This document shows, one piece after another, positions 3,165 through 24,363 of a stretch of DNA of 30,679 nt; within the stretch, counting starts at the first letter, position 1, and each line of letters begins with the position of its first letter. The notes under the pieces are model-generated. The model saw nothing but the letters and a program-made list of their open reading frames with translations. It had not been told where the DNA came from and did not search any database. The position numbers were made by a program, and so were the translations under genes. The stretch lies in IMG/VR virus record IMGVR_UViG_2802429237_000002, positions 1 to 30,679 of that record; one strand, 5' to 3'. Source of the stretch: a virus (Duplodnaviria > Heunggongvirae > Uroviricota > Caudoviricetes).

Positions 3165-3680
3165 TTAAATTGCGTGAATAGCGTGACGAGGGAAGGGGAG
3201 AGTTACTGGTGCAAAGGGGATATCGTCGTCAAAATCCATAGGTGGTTCGCTGTGATTCCCTTGCTGCTGAGGTTGCTGTCTTTGTTGCTGACCGTTATTT
3301 CGCTGAGGTGAAGACTGTTCATTGCCTCCTTGCTTGCCACCAAGCATTTGCATGGTTCCACCAACGCCCACGATGACTTCGGTAGTGAACCGATCCTGTC
3401 CGCTTTGATCCTGCCATTTTCTTGTCCGCAATTTGCCTTCAAGATAAACCTCAGAGCCTTTTCGCAGATATTCGCTGGCAATTTCTGCCAGTTTCCCGCT
3501 CATTACCACACGGTGCCACTCCGTCTGCTCCTTTTGCTCTCCAGTTTGCTTATCACGCCATTGTTCTGACGTAGCAACGGTAAGGTTTGCAAATGCCGTT
3601 CCTGATGGTGAATATCTGATTTCTGGATCATGCCCAAGGCGACCAATAATGATCACCTTATTTACGCCTCTGCTTGCCAT
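3165..3680 (-). CDS. ssb: Single-stranded DNA-binding protein (SSB) with a C-terminal extension beyond the acidic tip
   Basis: OB-fold N-terminus ([21 protein letters not shown]...), Gly/Gln-rich linker and acidic [10 protein letters not shown] motif, followed by 15 extra residues ([15 protein letters not shown]) before the stop. Confidence 0.9.
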
Positions 3681-4388
3681 TTATGCCGCCTGTTTTAGTT
3701 CGTTAACTCTGATGTTCATTACCTGAACGCATTTAGCCTGCGCCTCCTCGTTGCCAGCCATTAATTGCCAGTCACGCTGATAACGCTCGATGAGTTTTTT
3801 CTTGTCAGTTTCTGTTGACGCATAATCGCTGAAGTCTTTCAGGATTTGTTCGCAGTCAACCGATGGAGATTTCTGGTTGGTATTTTCTGGTGATGGTTTG
3901 TTATCTGATGCTGGGATTGCCCATCCCGGCAGCGATGGAGGGAGCCAGTAAAATCCTGTTCCATCCTTCAGTTTTGCCCTGTGCCACCCCTGCTTTTTAT
4001 CGAGAGATGTTTGTGCGAAACCTTCCTCAAGGTTATACAGATACCGACCGATTCCCCACTGAACGGCAGCACGCTTCATTGCACCGGAACGACCACCTTT
4101 GACGGCTTCTACCTGCGTGTTTTCAGCAGCATCCCATTTGGTTACCCATTCGGAATCAATCTTGATTGATATGCCGCATTCAACTCCGCCGTTGTTGGGA
4201 ATATCGCGGTATTCATTGCGCCATCCTGCTTTGCCGCAAACATCGTCCAGGCGTTTCATGATTGCCCTGTTCGTGACATAAGCCAGCACCATAGCCCACA
4301 CTTTTCCATCGCGTGTTTTACCGCTTTGCTGTATTCGCCATTCGATATCTTCAGGGCTGAATGGCTCATCGAATTTATTCAAATCCAT
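3681..4388 (-). CDS. Rad52/Rad22-family single-strand annealing protein (SSAP)
   Basis: Blocks VLAYVTNRAIMKRLDDVCGKAGWRNEYRDI and GGRSGAMKRAAVQWGIGRYLY resemble Rad52 N-terminal-domain motifs; GAGGTGA RBS; sits between the ssb and kil/cIII-like genes. Confidence 0.7.
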   Translation of the reverse strand: MDLNKFDEPFSPEDIEWRIQQSGKTRDGKVWAMVLAYVTNRAIMKRLDDVCGKAGWRNEYRDIPNNGGVECGISIKIDSEWVTKWDAAENTQVEAVKGGRSGAMKRAAVQWGIGRYLYNLEEGFAQTSLDKKQGWHRAKLKDGTGFYWLPPSLPGWAIPASDNKPSPENTNQKSPSVDCEQILKDFSDYASTETDKKKLIERYQRDWQLMAGNEEAQAKCVQVMNIRVNELKQAA

Positions 4389-4396
4389 AATTCACC

Positions 4397-4567
4397 TCAG
4401 AATGGACATGGCCCAAGGAAATAACGCTGGTTTAATACTTCGACTCGGGACAAATTAAGGCATACCCGCATTCCTTCGCGGTCACCATTATGGCGATACC
4501 AGAGAGCTTTCTGCGTGTACATGCGTCTCTGTAACTTGCTCTCCTTCACTGTGGTTGCAAGTGACAT
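4397..4567 (-). CDS. Hypothetical small protein (56 aa)
   Basis: Hand-translated MSLATTVKESKLQRRMYTQKALWYRHNGDREGMRVCLNLSRVEVLNQRYFLGPCPF; strong RBS GAAGGAGATAT 6 nt before the ATG; not in the supplied track (under 60 aa). Confidence 0.35.
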   Translation of the reverse strand: MSLATTVKESKLQRRMYTQKALWYRHNGDREGMRVCLNLSRVEVLNQRYFLGPCPF

Positions 4568-4646
4568 GAATATCTCCTTCGTTACCGATTAATTCTTTCA
4601 TCTGACGAATGAATTCTTCGTCTGACCAGTTATCTGTAAAGCTCAT
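4488..4646 (-). CDS. Hypothetical small protein (52 aa), alternative frame overlapping 4397..4567
   Basis: Hand-translated MSFTDNWSDEEFIRQMKELIGNEGDIHV...; its ATG overlaps the stop of the Kil-like ORF (ATGA); overlaps the 56-aa ORF by about 80 nt out of frame, so at most one may be real. Confidence 0.3.
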   Translation of the reverse strand: MSFTDNWSDEEFIRQMKELIGNEGDIHVTCNHSEGEQVTETHVHAESSLVSP

Positions 4647-4795
4647 TTCCTGCGATACCATGGAAGGTTGATAGCTGATTTCATCGCTTTATTTGCTTCA
4701 AGCCACATTTTTGAATCACCAATAAATCTGGCTATTACTGCTTTGTTCTGTGCAGCACGAAGCATCTGGTGATTAATGGCTATTTCATTGCGCAT
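4643..4795 (-). CDS. kil: Kil-like small protein (50 aa; candidate cell-division inhibitor)
   Basis: Hand-translated MRNEIAINHQMLRAAQNKAVIARFIGDSKMWLEANKAMKSAINLPWYRRK; GGAGG RBS; FIGDxKM motif and position directly downstream of the cIII-like gene match lambda kil as recalled. Confidence 0.45.
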   Translation of the reverse strand: MRNEIAINHQMLRAAQNKAVIARFIGDSKMWLEANKAMKSAINLPWYRRK

Positions 4796-4914
4796 AACGC
4801 CTCCAGTTGTTTCTTTGCTGTTCTGATTAATTGTTTAACTCGGCGTGATAATTCAGATTCGTGCGGGTAGAAAGCGGACATGACGCCGCTACCCGCGAGC
4901 TGAAAGTGCATCAT
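4780..4914 (-). CDS. cIII: cIII-like peptide (44 aa; candidate FtsH inhibitor)
   Basis: Hand-translated MMHFQLAGSGVMSAFYPHESELSRRVKQLIRTAKKQLEALCAMK; AGGAG RBS; amphipathic core aligns with lambda CIII (SESLLERITRKLRDGWKRLIDIL) as recalled. Confidence 0.5.
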   Translation of the reverse strand: MMHFQLAGSGVMSAFYPHESELSRRVKQLIRTAKKQLEALCAMK

Positions 4915-4997
4915 GGGTAACTCCTTCTGTTTGATTGCATAACGAAAACGCCTCGAGTGAAGCGTTATTGGTATGCGGTAAAGCCGCGCTTGGCGGC

Positions 4998-5414
4998 TTA
5001 TTTGAAAACTTCTATGAAATCAAGAACTGATGATATTTCGTGGTTGAATGATTTTCTTTTATATCTTTCTATCGCAGAATCTACCTGGTGTTTATAGTCA
5101 TCGTCGTTGGAGTATTTAACGAAGCATTCTATTGTCTCAGGCGTTACAGCTATAAGGCTCCACCAACCTTCATCAGATTGATATTCAAATCCCATGCTTT
5201 CAAGCCATCCAGCATATTTCCCTCCAGCATCTTGCCAGTGTGTCTTTTCTGCAAGGAAGCTGTTAACCGTCATATGTGCATCAAGGCATTTATCCAACTG
5301 TTTACCATTAAGTAGCCATGCGCTGACAGTTGCACATCCCAAATCAACCGATTTAGTAGAGATATTGAATTGGTCGTAATTATCTGGATTAACCAGAATA
5401 TCTGTAATTTTCAT
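4998..5414 (-). CDS. Hypothetical protein (138 aa), orphan in the early-left accessory slot
   Basis: ATG at 5414 (MKITDILVNPDNYDQF...) preceded by GGAGG RBS; net acidic and Trp-rich; no family recognised; directly downstream of an intrinsic terminator. Confidence 0.6.
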   Translation of the reverse strand: MKITDILVNPDNYDQFNISTKSVDLGCATVSAWLLNGKQLDKCLDAHMTVNSFLAEKTHWQDAGGKYAGWLESMGFEYQSDEGWWSLIAVTPETIECFVKYSNDDDYKHQVDSAIERYKRKSFNHEISSVLDFIEVFK

Positions 5415-5426
5415 AATTCCTCCGTC

Positions 5427-5453
5427 AAAAAAAACGCCCTCACATTGGAGGGC
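5427..5453 (-). terminator. Rho-independent terminator (tL-type) inside the leftward early operon
   Basis: Minus strand reads GCCCUC-CAAUGU-GAGGGC followed by G and eight U (plus-strand A-run 5427-5434, stem arms 5436-5441 and 5448-5453). Confidence 0.6.
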
Positions 5454-5589
5454 AAAGAAGATTTCCAATAATCAGAACAAGTCGGCTCCTGTTTAGTTAC
5501 GAGCGACATTGCTCCGTGTATTCACTCGTTGGAATGAATACACAGTGCAGTGTTTATTCTGTTGTTTATGCCAAAAAAAAAGGCCACCA

Positions 5590-5790
5590 TCAGGCAGCCT
5601 TGTTATTCTGTTTACCAAGCTCTCTGGCAATCATTGCCGTAGTTCGTATTGCCCATTTATCGACATATTTCCCATCCTCCATTACAGGAAACATTTCTTC
5701 AGGCTTAACCATGCATTCCGATTGCAGCTTGCATCCATTGCATCGCTTGAATTGTCCACACCATTGATTCTTATCAATAGTCGTAGTCAT
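5590..5790 (-). CDS. Hypothetical small Cys-rich protein (66 aa; possible zinc-binding)
   Basis: Four Cys in CGQFKRCNGCKLQSEC; ATG overlaps the 3' end of the upstream 28-codon ORF. Confidence 0.5.
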   Translation of the reverse strand: MTTTIDKNQWCGQFKRCNGCKLQSECMVKPEEMFPVMEDGKYVDKWAIRTTAMIARELGKQNNKAA

Positions 5791-5860
5791 ACGGATAGTC
5801 CTGGTATTGTTCCATCACATCCTGCGGATGCTCTTCGAACTCTTCAAATTCTTCTTCCAT
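5774..5860 (-). CDS. Putative highly acidic micro-ORF (28 aa)
   Basis: Hand-translated MEEEFEEFEEHPQDVMEQYQDYPYDYDY; GAGGTGA RBS that incorporates the TGA stop of N; overlaps the next gene's start by 17 nt. Not in track (too short). Confidence 0.3.
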   Translation of the reverse strand: MEEEFEEFEEHPQDVMEQYQDYPYDYDY

Positions 5861-5868
5861 ATCTCACC

Positions 5869-6168
5869 TCAAATAAGTGGTTTGCTGCCTAATTTCATTT
5901 TCTGGCGACCGACACAAGTCACACCCATTTCACTGCGTGGCTTGCTGTAGTAAATACGGTTCTGTTTACGCTCGACTTCATCTGCCTTCTTGCAGAGAAG
6001 GCTGCCAAGTGATGCTGCTTTGTCTGCTCTGACGCAACCAGAGAGCTTTAGCGCAATCTTCCGCGCCAGTCGCTGTTCTTTCATTGCTTGTTCACGTTGA
6101 GCCTGTCTGCGTGCTCTGCGGCGATTTCTGGCGTTATCGTCAGCCAGATATGTAATGACTACTGTCAT
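5869..6168 (-). CDS. N: N-type transcription antiterminator
   Basis: Arginine-rich motif NARNRRRARRQAQREQ near the N-terminus; C-terminal two-thirds resembles phage 21 N as recalled; GGAGG RBS; located between nutL/pL and the early-left genes. Confidence 0.75.
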   Translation of the reverse strand: MTVVITYLADDNARNRRRARRQAQREQAMKEQRLARKIALKLSGCVRADKAASLGSLLCKKADEVERKQNRIYYSKPRSEMGVTCVGRQKMKLGSKPLI

Positions 6169-6283
6169 GTTGACCTCCGATGATTGACTTTAGCGGTGAC
6201 GTGACGGGGGGGAGGGAGGTTAACTCCCTGATGCTGTCGCGCTGCTGCACTTCACATCACCCCAAAGCCAACTACTCTTTGGT

Positions 6284-6324
6284 TCCCGCATTTCGGCGGG
6301 ACAATCCCATCAATGTTAAAGAGC
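6284..6324 (-). promoter_or_regulatory. nutL: boxA (GCTCTTTAACA) plus boxB hairpin (UCCCGC-CGAAAU-GCGGGA)
   Basis: On the minus strand boxA (plus 6314-6324) is followed 12 nt later by the hairpin (plus 6284-6301); the same boxB occurs in nutR. Confidence 0.6.
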
Positions 6325-6371
6325 CTGCCAATCTGTTCCGTTTGGCTACCAGCGTCCTGCTGATGGCTTAA

Positions 6372-6454
6372 ATTTAAGATTTCTTTAATTAATGATCAAG
6401 GGTATTTTTGAAGAAAACTTAAATTTTATTGTGGCGCTTAAGTTTTGCTTTGAT
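6372..6454 (-). promoter_or_regulatory. OL operator cluster and pL promoter region
   Basis: Three 18-bp pseudo-palindromes matching the OR operators: ATTTAAGATTTCTTTAAT (6372-6389), 6407-6424 and 6437-6454; candidate -35 TTGATC on the minus strand at 6394-6399. Confidence 0.5.
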
Positions 6455-6460
6455 TTTTAA

Positions 6461-6489
6461 AGGAAAGAAAAAAGGGGCGAATGCCCCTT
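6461..6489 (-). terminator. Putative terminator at the 3' end of the repressor gene
   Basis: 7-bp stem AAGGGGC/GCCCCTT (6472-6478 and 6483-6489) with a 4-nt loop, followed on the minus strand by a U-rich tract; overlaps the repressor stop codon. Confidence 0.45.
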
Positions 6490-7138
6490 ATGGAAGGTTT
6501 GCTATTTTTGCATCGACAACTACACCGATGATTTTGCAGTTCCCGTTGATCTCAATCATCGGATATTGTGGGTTAAGTGGTTTTAGAAACTTTCTGCCTG
6601 CATCAATAACTAACTTCTTGAAAGTTGCCTCGTTTTCTCCTTCGAGCTTTGCCACTACAAGCTTCCCGTTACGAGGTTCTACTTCAGGATCGACGAGTAT
6701 TATCATTCCTTCGGGGATGCTGAGACCGGCTGGAGCCGTCATCGAATCACCCTTTACGTCCAGCCAAAACGAATCTTCTGAACAATCTACGGTTGTATCG
6801 TACCAGTTATCTATTGCACGCTTATGATATGGCTCTACAGCTTCCATCCAACATCCTGCGCTTACCCAACTAATTAGAGGATACGAACCTCTTGGATCAT
6901 GCCTGCTGTGATAGGCAATGTTTGAAAGACTATCTTCTCCTTTCAACAAGTAATCAGGGGAGCACTGCAAAGCCTTGGCTAAGGCCAATAGGTTTTCGCC
7001 ATTGGGCTCAGTTTCAGAACGCTCCCATTGGGAAATAGCAACATTAGACACGCCAACCATCTTGCCAAGGGCAGCCTGCCTAATTTTGAGTTCTTTTCTG
7101 CGAGCGCGAATACGCTCACCCATCAGTTGTGTATTCAT
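6488..7138 (-). CDS. cI: Phage repressor, CI/C2 type (HTH plus LexA-like S24 autopeptidase domain)
   Basis: 216 aa; N-terminal HTH (QAALGKMVGVSNVAISQWERSE), Ser-Lys dyad context (GDSMTAP ... KL); matches P22 c2 repressor nearly residue-for-residue as recalled. Confidence 0.92.
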   Translation of the reverse strand: MNTQLMGERIRARRKELKIRQAALGKMVGVSNVAISQWERSETEPNGENLLALAKALQCSPDYLLKGEDSLSNIAYHSRHDPRGSYPLISWVSAGCWMEAVEPYHKRAIDNWYDTTVDCSEDSFWLDVKGDSMTAPAGLSIPEGMIILVDPEVEPRNGKLVVAKLEGENEATFKKLVIDAGRKFLKPLNPQYPMIEINGNCKIIGVVVDAKIANLP

Positions 7139-7204
7139 AGTTAAGACATCTTAAATAAACTTGACTTAAGATTCCTTTGATAGATAATTTAAGTGTTCTT
7201 TAAT
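7139..7204. promoter_or_regulatory. OR operators (OR3-OR2-OR1) with pR (and divergent pRM)
   Basis: 18-bp operators AGTTAAGACATCTTAAAT (7139-7156), ACTTAAGATTCCTTTGAT (7164-7181), ATTTAAGTGTTCTTTAAT (7187-7204); pR -35 TTGACT (7161-7166) and -10 GATAAT (7183-7188), 16-bp spacer. Confidence 0.7.
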
Positions 7205-7218
7205 TTCGGAGCGAGTCT

Positions 7219-7404
7219 ATGTACAAGAAAGATGTTATCGACCACTTCGGAACCCAGCGTGCGGTAGCTAAAGCGTTAGGCATTAGCGATGCAGCAGTCT
7301 CTCAGTGGAAGGAAGTCATCCCAGAGAAAGACGCCTATCGACTGGAAGTCGTTACAGCTGGCGCCCTGAAGTATCAAGAAAGTGCTTATCGCAAAGCGGC
7401 ATAA
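7219..7404 (+). CDS. cro: Cro repressor
   Basis: 61 aa, HTH (QRAVAKALGISDAAVSQW); matches P22 Cro as recalled; immediately downstream of pR. Confidence 0.9.
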   Translation: MYKKDVIDHFGTQRAVAKALGISDAAVSQWKEVIPEKDAYRLEVVTAGALKYQESAYRKAA

Positions 7405-7410
7405 GCAAAT

Positions 7411-7454
7411 TGCTCTTTAACAGTCATGGTCCTCATTCCCGCCGAAATGCGGGA
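7411..7454 (+). promoter_or_regulatory. nutR: boxA (TGCTCTTTAACAG) plus boxB hairpin identical to nutL
   Basis: boxA at 7411-7423, boxB UCCCGC-CGAAAU-GCGGGA at 7437-7454, between cro and the cII-like gene. Confidence 0.65.
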
Positions 7455-7512
7455 ATACAACGCGCATCAGTTGGTGCGTATAACTTCTTATTTGTTAAGG
7501 AAATACTTACAT

Positions 7513-7791
7513 ATGCAACTTACAAGTACTCGCAAGAAAGCGAATGCAATTACAAGCAACATCCTAAATCGAATTGCTGTACGTGGTCAGCGAAAGGTTG
7601 CCGACGCGTTAGGGATTAATGAATCGCAAATTTCGCGATGGAAAGACAGTTTTATCCCAAAGATGGCCATGCTTCTGGCTGTGCTGGAGTGGGGTGTTGA
7701 AGACGAGGAATTGGCGGAACTGGCAAAGAAAGTAGCCAAGGTGCTGACAAAAGAAAAGCCTCAAGACTGCTGCAACAGTTTTGAGGCCTGA
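7513..7791 (+). CDS. cII: CII-like transcriptional activator (P22 c1 equivalent)
   Basis: From the internal ATG at 7513 (MQLTSTRKKANAITSNILNRIAVRGQRKVADALGINESQISRWK...); aligns with lambda CII HTH (KSQISRWKRDWIPK...LLAVLEWGV) as recalled. Confidence 0.8.
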   Translation: MQLTSTRKKANAITSNILNRIAVRGQRKVADALGINESQISRWKDSFIPKMAMLLAVLEWGVEDEELAELAKKVAKVLTKEKPQDCCNSFEA

Positions 7792-7825
7792 TGTAGAAAG
7801 ACTGGATCAATCCACAGGAGTAATT

Positions 7826-7987
7826 ATGACAAAACGTCGTAAGAAATACCAGGAAAAAGAAGAGATTCGACACCCTGATTCACCTGAGGGATTAGTGGTT
7901 GCCGCAGCAAATAACAGGGCGTTCGCAGAGCGCCTTGTTGGTGTTTACAGACTAGCCAAAGCAGGAGTGAAACATGGGCGTCGTTAA
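7826..7987 (+). CDS. Hypothetical small basic protein (53 aa)
   Basis: ATG at 7826 preceded by AGGAG RBS; overlaps the start of the replication gene by 14 nt. Confidence 0.4.
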   Translation: MTKRRKKYQEKEEIRHPDSPEGLVVAAANNRAFAERLVGVYRLAKAGVKHGRR

Positions 7988-8795
7988 GTTAGCTGATTAC
8001 AGGCCTCAACTGGAGATCGTGGAGCATCGCGTGGCAGATACCGAAGATGGTTTCATGCGCGTTGCTAACGAGATTACCGACAGTCTGCTGATGGCTGATT
8101 TAACCGTCCGGCAGTTGAAGGTGATGCTCGCTATCATGCGCAAGACATACGGATTCAATAAGCCGATGGATCGACTCACAAACACGCAGATAGCAGCCAT
8201 GACAGGTATTCATCACACTCATGTTTGCGCTGCCAAGCGCCAGCTTATTGAGCGTAAATTCCTCATTGCTGATGGCGTGAAAATCGGAGTGAACAAGGTG
8301 GTTTCTCAGTGGATTAGCCAGGACAGCTTAACATTAGCTAAAACAGCTAATAAAACATTAGCCAAGTCGGCTAATGGGTATAAGCCAAGTCAGCTAAACA
8401 CAAAAGACAATATACAAAAGACAATAAATACAAATACCCCCTTACCCCCTAACGGGGGCGGCGATGGGCAGGTTAAACCTGAACGTCGCAAGGCAGAACG
8501 AATCGACTACGAATCCTTCCTGAACGCCTACAACACCGAAGTCGGTGACAGACTGCCGCACGCTGTTGCGGTCAACGAGAAACGCAAACGCCGCCTGAAG
8601 AAAATCATCCCGCAACTGAAAACGCCAAACGTAGACGGTTTCAGAGCGTATGTCAGGGCGTTTGTGCATCAGGCCAAGCCGTTTTACTTCGGAGACAACG
8701 ACACGGGCTGGACGGCCGATTTTGATTACCTGCTGAGGGAAGACTCGTTAACGGGAGTTCGGGAAGGGAAGTTTGCAGACAGGGGGATTGCATGA
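7974..8795 (+). CDS. Replication initiation protein (lambda O / P22 gp18-like)
   Basis: AGGAG RBS; N-terminal DNA-binding region, iteron-containing linker, C-terminal domain; stop overlaps the helicase start (ATGA). Confidence 0.8.
8313..8440. repeat. Putative origin of replication: iterons followed by an AT-rich tract, inside the initiator gene
   Basis: Reiterated TTAGCYAA / CAGCTAA-type motifs from about 8313 to 8399, then an AT-rich segment with ACAAAAGACAATA twice (8400-8437). Confidence 0.45.
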
Positions 8796-19977: not shown

Positions 19978-22143
19978 ATGGCCGACGAAAACAGACTCAA
20001 TTCGATTCTGTGTAAGTTTGACGCGGACTGGATGGCGAGCGATGAAGCCAGAACCGAGGCGACAAATGACCTGTATTTTAGCCGAGTGTCGCAATGGGAT
20101 GACTGGCTATCAAACTACACGACCCTGCAATATCGCGGACAATTCGATGTTGTTCGCCCGGTGGTCAGGAAGCTGGTCGCAGAGATGCGCCGGAACCCTA
20201 TCGACGTTCTCTTCCGACCAAAAGACGGTGCTAATCCTGATGCAGCCGATGTGTTGATGGGGATGTATCGTACTGATATGCGCCATAACACGGCAAAGAT
20301 TGCCGTTAACGTTGGCGTTCGTGAGCAGATAGAGTCCGGCGTTGGTGCATGGCGTCTGGTCACGCAGTACGAAGACAACGATCCAACAAGCAACAATCAG
20401 GTAATTCGACGCCTGCCAATCCATGAAGCCTGCTCACACGTCATATGGGACGCAAACAGCAAGCAGATGGATAAGAGCGACGCTAAGCACTGCACGGTGA
20501 TTAACGCTTTGTCACGCAATGGCTGGAAAGAGTTCGCAGAGGATTACGGTATTGATCCGGATACCTTGCCATCTTTCCAGAATCCGAACGATACATGGCT
20601 GTTCCCTTGGGTATCGAATGATGTCGTCTACGTCGCTGAGTATTACGAGGTCGAAGAGAAGAAAGAGAAGGTCTTCATCTACCGCGACCCGCTGACAGGT
20701 GAGCCGGTCAGCTATTACCAGCAGGATATCAAAGACGTCATCGACGACCTGGCTAATCGTGGATTCATTAAGGTAGCAGAGCGTAAGGTCAAGCGTCGGC
20801 GTGTGTATAAGTCGATCATCACCTGCACGCAGATACTGAAAGACCGCGAGAAGATAGCCGGAGAGCATATTCCAATCGTTCCAGTGTATGGCGAATGGTC
20901 ATTCGCTGGTGACAAGGAGTGCTACGAAGGAGTGGTAAGGCTGACGAAAGACGGTCAACGCCTTCGTAACATGATCATGTCATTCAACGCCGATATTGTT
21001 GCTCGCTCACCGAAGAAGAAACCGACCTTCTTCCCTGAGCAAATCGAAGGCTACGAATACATGTACGGTGGAAATGATGACTATCCGTACTATCTGCAGA
21101 ACAGGACCGATGAAAACGGTAACGACCTGCCGATTGGTCCAATCTCCTACATGGAAAACCCTGAAGTGCCGCAAGCCAACGCTTACATGCTTGAGGCTGC
21201 CACCAACGCAGTGAAAGAGGTGGCTAGTCTTGGTGTGGATGCGCAGGCAGCAAACTCTCAGGTCGCTTTCGATACCGTCAATCAACTGAACATGCGGGCA
21301 GACCTTGAGACATACGTGTTTCAGGATAACCTGGCTACCGCAATGCGACGTGATGGCGAGATTTATGCCTCAATGGTCAACGATATTTATGACATTCCTC
21401 GTCATGTAACGCTGACACTTGAAGATGGAAGCGAGAAAGACGTTCAACTCTATGCGCAAGTTGTCGATTACCAGTCTGGCAATGTGGTCACACTCAACGA
21501 CATTCGCGGTCGATATGAGTGCTATACAGACGTTGGGCCATCCTTCCAGAGTATGAAGGAACAGAACCGCGCAGAGATTCAGGAGTTGCTCACCAAGGTT
21601 CCGCAAGGTACTCCAGAGTTCCAGATGCTGATGCTGCAATACTTCACGCTGCTTGACGGTAAAGGCGTCGAGATGATGCGAGAGTACGCGAACAAGCAAC
21701 TGGTGATGATGGGGCTGAAGAAACCAGAAACACCTGAAGAGATGGAGATGGTACAGCAGGCTCAACAGCAGCTGCAGCAGCCATCAGCAGAGCAAATTCA
21801 GGCACAGGGTATCCTTCTGCAAGGTCAGGCTGAATTGCTCAAGGCAGAGAACCAACAGGCGCAGATTCAGGTTGAAGCCGCCAAGGTTGAAGCCCAAAAC
21901 CAACTCAACGCCGCGAAGATTGCAGAAATCTTCAACAATATGGACCTCGACAAGCAGGCAGAACTGCGTGAGTACCTCAAGCTCGTAGGTCAATTCCAGC
22001 AACAGCGCAGCAAAGATGCTCGTGCTAACGCTGAGCTGCTTCTTAAAGATGCAGACCAGACTCATTCACAACGCATGGATTTCGCGAATCTTATGCGTCA
22101 AGTTCAAATCCCCTCCGGCGGAGTAGCCGAGACACCTCAATAA
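19978..22143 (+). CDS. Portal protein (P22 gp1-like)
   Basis: 721 aa; extensive similarity to P22 portal as recalled, including the Gln-rich C-terminal helical barrel region. Confidence 0.92.
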
Positions 22144-22156
22144 GAGAGAGTTAATC

Positions 22157-23068
22157 ATGGACCAAACCACCGACATTCAGGCTTCTGAAGAATTAACCCT
22201 GCCCGGCAATCATGCAGCGGCATCTGCTGATGGCTTAGTTGTCGATAATGCCAACGACAACGCAGGTCAGGAAGAAGGCTTCGAGATTGTCCTGAAAGAC
22301 GATGAGAAACCAAAACAAGACCCGGCAACTAATGCTGAATTTGCCCGTCGCCGCATCGAACGCAAACGCCAGCGTGAGCTTGAGCAGCAGATGGAAGCAG
22401 TTAAGCGTGGAGAGTTGCCGGAGCACCTGCGGGTGAACCCTGAGTTACCAAAACAACCAGACCCTAACGATTATCTTTCCGAAGATGCACTGGCTAAGTA
22501 CGACTATGACCAGAGCCGCGCACTGGCTGCCTTCCAGCAGGCAAACAGTGAATGGCAGATCAAGGCTATGGACGCACGAAGCCAGGCTGTCGCCGAGCAG
22601 GGTCGCAAAACTCAGGAGTTCACCCAGCAATCAGCGCAATACGTCGAGGCAGCCCGTAAGCACTACGACGCAGCGGAAAAGCTCAATATCCCTGACTATC
22701 AGGAGAAAGAGGATGCATTCATGCAACTGGTGCCGCCAGCAGTCGGTGCCGACATCATGCGCCTCTTCCCGGAGAAATCCGCTGCTCTCATGTATCACCT
22801 TGGTGCTAATCCTGAGAAAACACGCCAGTTGCTGGCAATGGACGGGCAATCCGCGCTGATTGAACTCACTCGACTGTCAGAACGTTTAACTCTCAAGCCT
22901 CGAGCCAAGCCTGTTTCAGAAGCCCCGTTACCTGATGAACCAATTCAGGGACACGCTGTTGCTGCAAATATCTCTGCGATTGAAAAGCAGATGGAAGCGG
23001 CAGCAAACAAAGGGGATGTAGAGACGTACCGCAAGCTCAAGGCGCAACTGAATAAAGGAATTCGATAA
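22157..23068 (+). CDS. Scaffolding protein (P22 gp8-like)
   Basis: 303 aa; same length and highly similar to P22 gp8 as recalled; TAATG coupling to the coat gene. Confidence 0.85.
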
Positions 23069-24363
23069 TGGCATTAAATGAAGGTCAACTGGTCACGTAT
23101 GCTCTGGATGAAATCATCGAAACCGTCCAGAATCTGACGCCAATGGCGTCCAAAGTGACAAAATACACCCCTCCGGCAGAATACATGCAGCGTTCAAGCA
23201 ACACCGTGTGGATGCCTGTTGAGCAGGAAGCGCCAACCCAGACTGGCTGGGATTTAACTGGCAACGCTACCGGTATTCTGGAACTGTCCGTGAAATGCAA
23301 CATGGGCGATCCGGATAACGATTTCTTCGAGCTTCGTGCAGATGACCTGCGTGATGAGCGTTCTTACCGTCGCCGCATCCAGGCATCCGCCAAAAAACTG
23401 GCGAATAACATTGAGTCAGCGATTGCCAAACAGGCAACTGAAATGGGCTCACTTGTTGTTCACGATACCCGCGCAATTGGTCCATCTACTGGTCTGTCTG
23501 GCTGGGATTTTGTGTCTGATGCAGAGCGCCTGATGTTCTCCCGCGAGCTAAACCGCGACATGGGAATCAGTTACTTCCTGAACCCTGACGATTACCGCAA
23601 AGCAGGCCGCAACCTGGTAGATGGTGACATCTTCGGGCGCGTTCCTGAAGAAGCATATCGCAACGGTACTATTCAGCGTCAGATTGCTGGCTTTGATGAA
23701 ATTCTTCGCTCACCGAAACTTCCGGCAGTTACCAAGTCAACCGCTACTGGTGTAACTGTTTCTGGTGCGCAGAAGTTTAAGCCGCAGGCATACACCCTTG
23801 ATACCGATGGTAACAAAGAGAACGTCGACAACCGTGTTGCAACGGTGACCGTATCCTCCACCACCGGATTTAAGCGCGGCGACAAAATCAGCTTCACTGG
23901 TGTGAAATTCCTGTCTCAGATGGCGAAGAACGTGCTGACTGATGATGCGACTTTCTCAATCACCCGTGTGATCGATGGTACTCACATCGAAATCACGCCG
24001 AAGCCGATTGCGCTTGATGACGCTTCACTGACAAAAGAAGAGAAGGCTTACGCTAATGTAAACACATCTCTTGCTGATGCCACTCCGGTAAACGTTCTGA
24101 ACGTGGCAACAACCACCGCTAACGTGTTCTGGGCTGATGACTCAATCCGCCTGCTGTCTCAGCCGATCCCGGTAACCCATGAACTGTTTGCTGGCATGAA
24201 AACGTCTTCCTTCAGCATTCCTGGTATTGGTATTAACGGCATCTTCGCAACGCAGGGTGATATCAACACTCTGTCTGGTAAGTGCCGTATTGCTATGTGG
24301 TATTCAGCATGTGCTGTGCGACCAGAGGCAATTGGCGTTGGTCTGCCTAACCAGACTGCGTGA
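23068..24363 (+). CDS. Major capsid (coat) protein (P22 gp5-like, HK97 fold)
   Basis: 431 aa; conserved blocks shared with P22 coat ([19 protein letters not shown]...GIFATQGDI...TLSG). Confidence 0.92.

Follow-up and report, generated by a model that had tools for sequence, protein, structure and literature searches.

A lambda-type early-left operon segment in which ea10 appears to be replaced by a gene of an uncharacterised phage protein family

We begin by looking at the early-left (pL) operons of lambda and of phage 21, the described systems that are closest to the locus of this study. In lambda (NC_001416, 33299-34357) the segment holds orf28, ral, PreS/tL2a, ea10 and cIII, and sieB lies between N and orf28. 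The Ral protein alleviates type I (EcoK/EcoB) restriction and pushes EcoK-type enzymes toward modification; knock-down of ral by CRISPRi has an effect only in hosts with a type I restriction-modification system, where the gene is conditionally essential, while orf28 and ea10 are non-essential (PMC10695390). Between ral and ea10 lies the small RNA LPR1/PreS, with tL2a as its 3' end (bioRxiv 10.1101/2024.10.31.621285; PMC12197685). PreS is an Hfq-dependent sRNA of about 88 nt that is processed to about 68 nt, and it raises the translation of the host DnaN (dnaN) in lytic growth (bioRxiv 10.1101/2024.10.31.621285). Phage 21 (OL657228) has N, ral, a terminator, ea10 and cIII, with orf28/ral following directly after N.

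The window (the whole stretch of viral DNA that was analysed, 30,679 nt) can with good confidence be read, at positions 4998-5860 of its minus strand, as a canonical lambda-type pL operon segment; this is a judgement on the cassette, the gene identities and the function taken together. The order on that strand would be N, orf28, ral, a hairpin-terminator, the PreS/LPR1 sRNA ending in tL2a, one accessory gene, cIII and kil. Upstream is the gene of the N antiterminator (99 aa, 5869..6168; phrog_271, E 1.5e-35). Downstream is cIII (4780..4914; Pfam PF08134, E 1.4e-29), and beyond it kil (4643..4795; Pfam PF06301, E 1.7e-20). These Pfam and PHROG matches agree with the initial annotation, which had placed the locus between N and cIII/kil, and the ORFs, the terminator and the inverted repeat that it described are all present on the minus strand at the coordinates it gave. 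All three ORFs match protein families (E from 7e-19 to 1e-86) and are therefore not chance reading frames.

At the DNA level, positions 5428-5885 are 96.5% identical to lambda 33925-34381 (458 bp), positions 4938-4997 are 92% identical to lambda 33483-33544, and positions 5428-6074 are 96% identical to phage 21 (OL657228). The locus has in common with lambda the orf28 and Ral proteins and their 17-nt overlap, the intergenic hairpins, the body of PreS, tL2a, and the downstream junction before cIII. It differs from lambda in that an unrelated 138-aa gene takes the place of ea10 (DUF2528), in that N directly adjoins orf28 rather than being separated from it by sieB, and in that N is a hybrid whose C-terminal two-thirds are of the phage-21 type. 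Phage 21 shares the direct succession of N and orf28/ral and has an annotated terminator at the position equivalent to 5427-5454, but its cassette slot is filled by ea10, and the N-terminal part of its N and its nutL boxB are unlike those found here. Most of the region has been described before, the remainder being an ordinary hypothetical gene in a cassette, and among the three genes it is the 138-aa protein alone that is uncharacterised. Its proper annotation would read N, orf28, ral, PreS/tL2a, hypothetical protein and cIII, a textbook lambda pL segment that is of little import as found.

The 66-aa ORF (5590..5790, minus strand) is identified by its sequence as ral, the restriction alleviation gene (Pfam PF11058; phrog_1055). 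The match of its product to PF11058 extends over residues 1-66 of 66 and scores 162.5 bits against a gathering cutoff of 25 (E 1.6e-48). The protein is 100% identical to lambda Ral, and the 6 nucleotides (of 201) that differ are each synonymous. Its cysteine cluster has the form C11-x5-C17-x2-C20-x5-C26. The gene is found downstream of N in the pL operon, in the order N, orf28, ral, as it is in phage 21 and lambda alike. The initial annotation had counted three unrecognised ORFs while citing lambda ral as an example of what this slot can hold. The 66-aa protein is that very example, and a second ORF is lambda orf28, each of the two being 100% identical to its lambda counterpart; the expectation of an anti-restriction function in the region was sound, and Ral itself would supply it.

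The 28-aa ORF (5774..5860, minus strand) is assigned to lambda's annotated but uncharacterised orf28 (lambdap47; phrog_16060, E 7e-19). The peptide, MEEEFEEFEEHPQDVMEQYQDYPYDYDY, has the composition reported for it earlier (12 Asp/Glu and 5 Tyr among its 28 residues), and its Shine-Dalgarno sequence, GAGGTG, overlaps the N stop codon TGA (5869-5871), which had been noticed as well. All 28 residues are those of lambda orf28, with 1 of the 87 nucleotides differing, synonymously, so that the 7 nucleotide differences from lambda in orf28 and ral are all synonymous. At the stop codon of orf28 the two genes overlap by 17 nt, exactly as they do in lambda (NP_040622 / NP_040623). Does orf28 make a functional peptide? 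It is possible, and to be taken seriously, that it does not, being either untranslated or a mere upstream ORF that brings ribosomes to ral by way of the overlap. The ATG of ral sits within orf28 and has nothing better than a weak AGGA 8 nt upstream, as against the good GAGGTG of orf28; the peptide is of low complexity, and its gene is non-essential in lambda (PMC10695390). Conservation argues for a peptide. A tblastn search with the peptide gave no match, presumably an effect of the low-complexity filter. Intact orf28 is also found in P22, SE10, ST64T, ST415 and ECP1; in the Salmonella P22-like phages, with DNA diverged by up to 11% and too few in number to give a dependable dN/dS, the changes are mostly synonymous or conservative, and in phage ECP1 the ORF stays intact although ral carries an 80-bp internal deletion.

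We now consider the RNA features between ral and the 138-aa gene. The 196-nt stretch 5415-5610, in which this intergenic region is contained, has a much more stable fold than shuffled sequences have (z = -6.0). At its ral end, a terminator-like hairpin with a T-run lies over the ral stop codon (5570..5601, minus strand); the terminator scan gives a 9-bp stem (5601-5580) followed by T9, and the hairpin is formed in the minimum-free-energy structure and is kept in lambda. A long hairpin with 22-nt arms (5506..5553, minus strand) is found directly 5' of PreS by repeat search, RNA folding and comparison with lambda. Its arms (5506-5527 / 5532-5553) are 82% complementary, the 9-bp inverted repeat 5516-5524 / 5535-5543 forms its core, the RNA fold contains a 14-bp stem, and the lambda sequence is identical. 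The putative PreS/LPR1 sRNA follows at 5427..5514 on the minus strand (about 88 nt), the 5' end being placed by the published length alone; 5427-5514 departs from the lambda sequence between ral and ea10 only at one loop base and in the T-run. The 3' end of PreS is the terminator at 5427-5454, for which the scan gives a stem (5454-5435) followed by T8 (5434-5427). A search of Rfam, a collection without a PreS model, has no match over the region at any family's gathering score.

The initial annotation was right that a terminator stands ahead of the 138-aa gene. The terminator is recognisable as tL2a of the lambda backbone, the 3' end of PreS, and the inverted repeat as part of the hairpin just upstream of PreS. 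Both are in conserved lambda DNA, and neither is a gate specific to the 138-aa gene, contrary to what had been proposed.

The part of the stretch that is exchanged can be delimited closely. Homology to lambda and phage 21 ends at 5428 and starts again at 4997, with sharp junctions at both sides. By homology breakpoints and GC content, what lies between them (4998..5426, minus strand) is an exchangeable cassette in place of lambda ea10, containing the 138-aa gene (4998-5414) and its GGAGG ribosome-binding site (5419-5423). The cassette is 429 bp long, with a GC content of 37.6% compared with about 45% in the flanks. It is the sole part of the stretch that differs from lambda, swapping ea10 at gene boundaries.

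The 138-aa ORF on the minus strand begins with the ATG at 5414, 4 nt downstream of the GGAGG (5419-5423), and its stop codon is at 4998-5000. In the mechanical ORF list the same frame begins further upstream, with a TTG at 5468 (156 aa); all homologues agree with the ATG, which has the strong ribosome-binding site. The protein has a pI of 4.75, with 22 Asp/Glu against 13 Lys/Arg, and contains 5 Trp. It matches phrog_8967 over residues 1-138 of 138 (E 1.3e-86), and all 59 of the 59 aligned relatives match this PHROG and no other. The dN/dS of the gene is 0.085 when compared with an E. coli allele and 0.12 when compared with phage FV3. The protein is genuine and under purifying selection. An exhaustive HMM search gives 62 family representatives, in which Y67, L71 and W84, three residues of a DWGGxYAxWL...NGWWS motif, never vary. 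N12, D62, W85, N94 (Thr in the protein studied here) and F98 are further conserved positions. Prediction with AlphaFold2 gave a pLDDT of 44 from a 9-sequence alignment and of 96.8 after the distant relatives from the exhaustive search had been joined. The family has a median pI of 4.69, with 93% of its members below 5.5, and a survey of physical properties finds no hydrophobic or membrane segment in it. This is a soluble, acidic, mostly helical protein, a member of the sparse uncharacterised phage family phrog_8967.

Searches for a function gave little. For the single 138-aa protein and for a 59-member profile, Pfam, NCBIfam, PADLOC and PDB return noise only; sequence or profile matches in the PDB have E values of at least 0.2, no similar fold is recognised among solved structures, and among curated defence families there is neither a PADLOC model nor an NCBIfam match. 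The C-terminal extensions of fused family members have no matches, and a literature search on the accessions of the protein and on phrog_8967 returned nothing. That the protein is a diverged Ea10 (DUF2528, Pfam PF10800) was considered and rejected: it has no Pfam match, and hhalign of the family profile gives a probability of 1% against lambda Ea10 and 0.4% against a 24-sequence Ea10 profile.

Members of phrog_8967 are found in rV5-like virulent phages, in a few lambdoid prophages and in environmental phages, always amid early genes. One named relative is ORF194 of the rV5-like phage FV3 (YP_007006365; phrog_8967), also 138 aa long, which aligns over its full length and has the same motif; rV5-like family members are 64-68% identical, and 115 Vequintavirinae records have a homologue at about 66% identity. 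The setting of these homologues is different from that seen here, being 135-kb virulent myoviruses with long arrays of small hypothetical genes and no N/ral/PreS context. Among complete E. coli genomes, 35 of 5426 have a locus covering at least 80% of a 4900-5600 query that included the cassette, and in a Dryocola prophage the 138-aa homologue is downstream of N too. The distant members are found in runs of small early genes that all point the same way, beside genes for replication, recombination and nucleotide metabolism. The related-locus search was made with an 18-sequence subset of the family alignment; few distant relatives came out of a word-indexed profile search, and of 120 matches to a degenerate TDNGWW DNA pattern 2 were real, the remainder mostly chance. 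No conserved partner gene recurs among the 70 neighbour proteins from 11 loci, and in the distant phages the neighbours are mostly DNA/nucleotide-metabolism genes, not recognised anti-defence genes.

How would the 138-aa gene be expressed? A sequence scan upstream of the gene finds no promoter-like site on its strand. The gene would be transcribed solely when N-modified RNA polymerase passes the ral-proximal terminator and tL2a, and such read-through of both terminators would make it a delayed-early lytic gene. The dependence on N antitermination, which the initial annotation had also put forward and which we judge to be right, is carried over from lambda genetics to a hybrid N/nut pair.

As for what the protein does, our leading reading, held tentatively, is that it works on its own, binding a host protein stoichiometrically; the bound protein may be either a defence component or a factor of DNA/nucleotide metabolism. 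An anti-defence or host-takeover role would fit the context. Taken further, phrog_8967 may be a new stand-alone phage inhibitor family directed against a host immune or housekeeping factor, with a fold unseen among solved structures, and horizontally exchanged between virulent rV5-like phages and temperate lambdoids, in which it forms a cassette behind PreS/tL2a that depends on N; this wider proposal is a speculative one, and somewhat unlikely to hold in full. With its high-confidence model, its lack of a PDB fold match and its occurrence in temperate and virulent coliphages in common, the family is a well-defined candidate for anti-defence/host-takeover screens, and a positive screen, if true, would add one new inhibitor family.

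Alternatively, though we find this rather unlikely, the protein could assist the phage in DNA replication, recombination or nucleotide metabolism as an accessory factor, analogous to the proposal for Ea10, and be no inhibitor of immunity. This alternative draws on the company that the genes keep: distant family members adjoin RecT/Erf, YqaJ, DnaB, primase, ThyX, dUTPase, RNR, nucleotide kinases and RtcB, in lambdoids the gene is closely followed by the recombination module, the neighbouring sRNA PreS increases DnaN (bioRxiv 10.1101/2024.10.31.621285), and the slot is that of ea10, whose product is entered in several records as a ssDNA-binding protein. The early region beside the replication genes, however, is also the seat of most host-takeover genes. 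The protein itself lacks a conserved partner gene and any nucleic-acid-binding or enzymatic domain match, the uniform acidity of the family is atypical of DNA binders, and the low hhalign probability (0.4%) speaks for a protein unrelated to Ea10.

A role of the gene as a prophage 'moron', guarding the lysogen through superinfection exclusion or anti-phage defence, is improbable. A low-GC foreign cassette within a prophage accessory hotspot would suit such a role, and superinfection exclusion genes, sieB of lambda and gene 17 of P22, are in the same general region. But about 115 strictly virulent rV5-like phages have the 66%-identical homologue, the gene has two terminators ahead of it in the repressed pL operon and lacks its own promoter-like site, and the protein has neither a PADLOC defence model match nor a membrane segment.

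A single undescribed anti-defence or host-modulation module, made up of the three ORFs working together and provided with a dedicated terminator, is extremely improbable: the ORFs are neighbours with a common direction in the N-to-cIII slot and one of them, ral, is truly anti-restriction, but ral and orf28 are lambda genes at 100% identity, the terminator and hairpin belong to the lambda backbone and PreS, and the 138-aa gene is exchanged independently, with ea10 in its place in lambda and phage 21, other genes in CUS-3, phi296 and ECP1, and an rV5-like homologue that has no ral near it.

We finally examine the slot itself. The 138-aa gene is exchanged independently, as a cassette, and is present in other phages that have neither ral nor orf28; unrelated genes occupy the same junctions in other phages. 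Directly after tL2a are found ea10 (DUF2528) in lambda, gp57 in ECP1 (phrog_14587, annotated as 'anti-restriction protein') and two genes in CUS-3 (ECRS218_0048/0049); ECP1 gp57 and lambda ea10 share the left junction too, just before the cIII leader. A 138-aa basic protein of phi296 (phrog_1636) is inserted upstream of PreS beside the hairpin, not after tL2a. Comparison of the 138-aa family with these other slot cassettes by hmmsearch gives no matches. In this hotspot the modules join at RNA hairpins and terminators, namely the ral terminator, the hairpin 5' of PreS, and tL2a, and the locus illustrates the mosaicism of lambdoid phages, with the regulatory RNAs kept and the cargo swapped. In one E. 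coli prophage, ea10 and the 138-aa gene are present in tandem.

Every gene between 4400 and 6200 lies on the minus strand, as seen from the ORF list and the sequence. N (99 aa, 5869-6168) is followed by a 28-aa ORF (5774-5860, peptide MEEEFEEFEEHPQDVMEQYQDYPYDYDY), a 66-aa ORF with a C-x5-C-x2-C-x5-C cluster (5590-5790), a 138-aa ORF (ATG at 5414, stop codon at 4998-5000, GGAGG at 5419-5423), cIII (4780-4914) and kil (4643-4795). The terminator scan places one hairpin-terminator at the end of the 66-aa ORF (5601-5580 and a T-run), overlapping its stop codon, and another in front of the 138-aa ORF (stem 5454-5435, T8 at 5434-5427). The initial annotation described 4998-5860 as a trio of orphan genes gated by the latter terminator, with a 9-bp inverted repeat upstream (5516-5524 / 5535-5543). 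The ORFs, terminator and repeat are all present in the window sequence, the composition figures are correct on recount, and the choice of the slot between N and cIII is sensible. A repeat search finds the 9-bp repeat to be the centre of a long hairpin with 22-nt arms (5506-5527 / 5532-5553), and the RNA fold of the 196-nt stretch 5415-5610, intergenic region included, gives z = -6.0 against shuffles.

Comparison with lambda does not leave three orphans. The 66-aa protein is Ral, with a full-length match to Pfam Ral (PF11058, E 1.6e-48) and a match also to phrog_1055, and the 28-aa ORF is orf28, matching phrog_16060 (E 7e-19). Both translations are 100% identical to lambda, and the nucleotide differences (six in ral, one in orf28) are synonymous without exception. 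In the lambda record orf28 (lambdap47, 34271-34357) and ral (34087-34287) overlap by 17 nt, exactly as in the window. DNA identity is 96.5% between window 5428-5885 and lambda 33925-34381, and 96% between window 5428-6074 and phage 21, whose record annotates N, ral ("restriction inhibitor"), then a terminator at the position equivalent to window 5427-5454, ea10 and cIII. The block is common to hundreds of lambdoid and P22-like phages, and Ral is the lambda protein that alleviates type I restriction. The sequence identifies Ral and orf28, together with the hairpin and the terminator (tL2a/PreS), as lambda backbone at 96% DNA identity, and the suggested undescribed module is unsupported. This leaves a single hypothetical cassette gene, which belongs to an uncharacterised phage family and whose product is already in the databases.

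The reading frame of orf28 may yield an active peptide or may serve to couple translation to ral. It retains a good Shine-Dalgarno sequence that overlaps the N stop codon, and P22-like phages whose DNA has diverged by up to 11% still have it intact, with 0 to 4 conservative substitutions. In phage ECP1 (locus L146, NC_049926, 1151-1520) orf28 is intact and annotated gp58; ral there has an internal deletion of about 80 bp (the equivalent of window 5655-5736 is absent), so orf28 is retained without a functional ral.

We turn to the terminator. LPR1, later renamed PreS, sits between ral and ea10 in lambda and is an Hfq-dependent sRNA about 88 nt long, from which processing leaves about 68 nt; the early-left termination site tL2a consists of its GC-rich hairpin with the poly-U tail. 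The sRNA is expressed in the lytic cycle and pairs with the host dnaN mRNA, raising DnaN translation (review, PMC12197685; primary preprint, bioRxiv 10.1101/2024.10.31.621285). Between the ral stop codon and the T-run the window is nearly base-for-base lambda; the 88-nt segment that ends at 5427 departs from lambda only in one loop base and in the T-run. By this identity PreS would occupy 5427-5514 (minus strand), its 5' end near 5514 being placed by length only. An Rfam scan of the region gives no hit at any family's gathering score; PreS has no Rfam model. Given the near-identity to lambda and the published role of PreS/tL2a, the terminator at 5427-5454 is a conserved backbone element at the 3' end of PreS, not a gate dedicated to the 138-aa gene. 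The hairpin at 5506-5553, identical in lambda, lies directly 5' of PreS in this conserved sequence and could be where processing sets the 5' end of PreS.

The 138-aa gene itself is a separate matter. Homology to lambda and phage 21 stops at 5428, directly after the tL2a T-run, and restarts at 4997, directly after the stop codon of the gene; the 429 bp between these junctions are the ribosome-binding site and the ORF, with 37.6% GC against about 45% in the flanks. Where the window has this gene, lambda and phage 21 have ea10. ECP1 has, between the same two junctions, an 82-aa acidic protein annotated anti-restriction (phrog_14587), CUS-3 has two unrelated genes after tL2a and, at the ral terminator, an inserted gene for a membrane protein, and in phi296 an unrelated gene for a basic 138-aa protein is inserted beside the long hairpin (at its edge, window 5543-5548). 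Since the cargo differs at shared junctions, the slot is a recombination hotspot with junctions at RNA hairpins, and the 138-aa gene is one of many cargos that can occupy it. Of 5426 complete E. coli genomes, 35 have a single place covering 80% or more of the query 4900-5600, which spans the cassette; 2250 match some part of it. Across the comparison loci L003, L144, L145 and L146, mosaic junctions fall at 5427/5428, 5543-5548, 5572-5585 and 4997/4998, coinciding with tL2a, the PreS-proximal hairpin, the ral terminator and the cargo-gene stop codon; CUS-3, phi296, ECP1 and one E. coli prophage each have a different cargo at these junctions.

The 138-aa ORF is a real protein under purifying selection (dN/dS 0.085 against an E. 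coli allele, 0.12 against phage FV3). The description of unrecognised ORFs, which does not hold for ral and orf28, stands for this one: it is identical to WP_105289100.1, all database names are "hypothetical protein", and the remote-homology search matches only the uncharacterised phrog_8967 (function unknown, E 1.3e-86). Searches of Pfam, NCBIfam, PADLOC and PDB sequences give no match to the protein or to its family profile. By tblastn, homologues 64-68% identical occur in 115 records; the matches listed are rV5-like myoviruses (Vequintavirinae, 130-143 kb, e.g. FV3 ORF194), where the gene is embedded in an extended run of small hypothetical genes. A Dryocola prophage has a 74%-identical copy downstream of N. 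When 1.8 billion representatives are searched exhaustively with an HMM, only 62 relatives emerge at E < 1e-3, sharing the core DWGGxYAxWLxxxGIxxx[TS][DE]NGWW[SN]xxA[VI]xPxNIxxF, with Y67, L71 and W84 invariant and N12, D62, G75, G83, W85, A89 and F98 near-invariant. Acidity is uniform across phrog_8967 (median pI 4.69, net charge -9), whose members show no hydrophobic segment. AlphaFold2 predicts a largely helical protein with small beta bridges (pLDDT 96.8, pTM 0.88 with a 59-sequence alignment; pLDDT only 44 with 9 sequences), in which comparison with solved structures recognises no known domain or fold. A diverged Ea10 is ruled out by hhalign (probabilities 1% and 0.4%).

N is required for pL transcripts to pass the tL terminators. 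Two terminators precede the 138-aa gene and a scan finds no promoter-like site of its own, so it would be a delayed-early, N-dependent lytic gene, silent in the lysogen. For a small, acidic, soluble, partner-less protein in an accessory hotspot, shared by temperate and virulent coliphages, the reading we tentatively prefer, at less than even odds, is that it acts by binding a host protein, either a defence component or a DNA/nucleotide-metabolism factor. It seems doubtful that the family is a new class of inhibitors that act alone and have a fold not seen before. A replication or recombination accessory is an unlikely reading. The distant loci, recovered from viral, genome and metagenome collections and lying on phage-like contigs with 36-60% GC, all have the gene within a co-directional run of small genes, and the 70 neighbouring proteins include RtcB, ThyX, dUTPase, RNR, nucleotide kinases, phosphatases, DnaB/primase and Erf/RecT/YqaJ, with no recurrent family among them. 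One member (locus L126, IMGVR_UViG_3300009506_000005, 6001-6996) is fused to a 190-aa C-terminal extension that has no family match; its gene immediately precedes one for an RtcB RNA ligase (6960-8156) and lies downstream of YqaJ/RecT and a replication gene. The consistent context signal is that of a stand-alone early gene, nothing more specific. A lysogen-protective moron is improbable, given the homologues in virulent phages and the lack of a promoter. For functional screens the gene is a sensible candidate, though not an exceptional one.

Several other sites in the window deserve mention. N is a hybrid, 96% phage-21 type in its C-terminal two-thirds and different in the N-terminal arginine-rich part (6075-6168); upstream are a boxA-like GGCTCTTTAACA (6313-6324, minus strand) and, as putative boxB, a different hairpin with a 6-bp stem (6283-6300), which suggests that N/nutL specificity co-varies. 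Between the 138-aa gene and cIII there is a weak terminator-like hairpin (4947-4966, minus strand; 8-bp stem, poor T-run); it falls within the cIII leader region, where the DNA is 92% identical to lambda 33483-33544. A strong one (6472-6489, minus strand; AAGGGGC...GCCCCTT, then a T-run) overlaps the stop codon of a 216-aa S24-peptidase-type repressor gene (6488-7138) and is probably the terminator of the repressor transcript. Downstream of kil, 3165-4661 encodes a 57-aa protein (phrog_2123, annotated "recombinase"), a 235-aa ORF and a 171-aa ORF that by eye looks SSB-like; from this gene content the recombination module appears not to be of the lambda Red type. At 19978-24363 the lengths of three ORFs (721, 303 and 431 aa) correspond to those of portal, scaffold and coat proteins, and by these the whole window looks like a P22-like podovirus.
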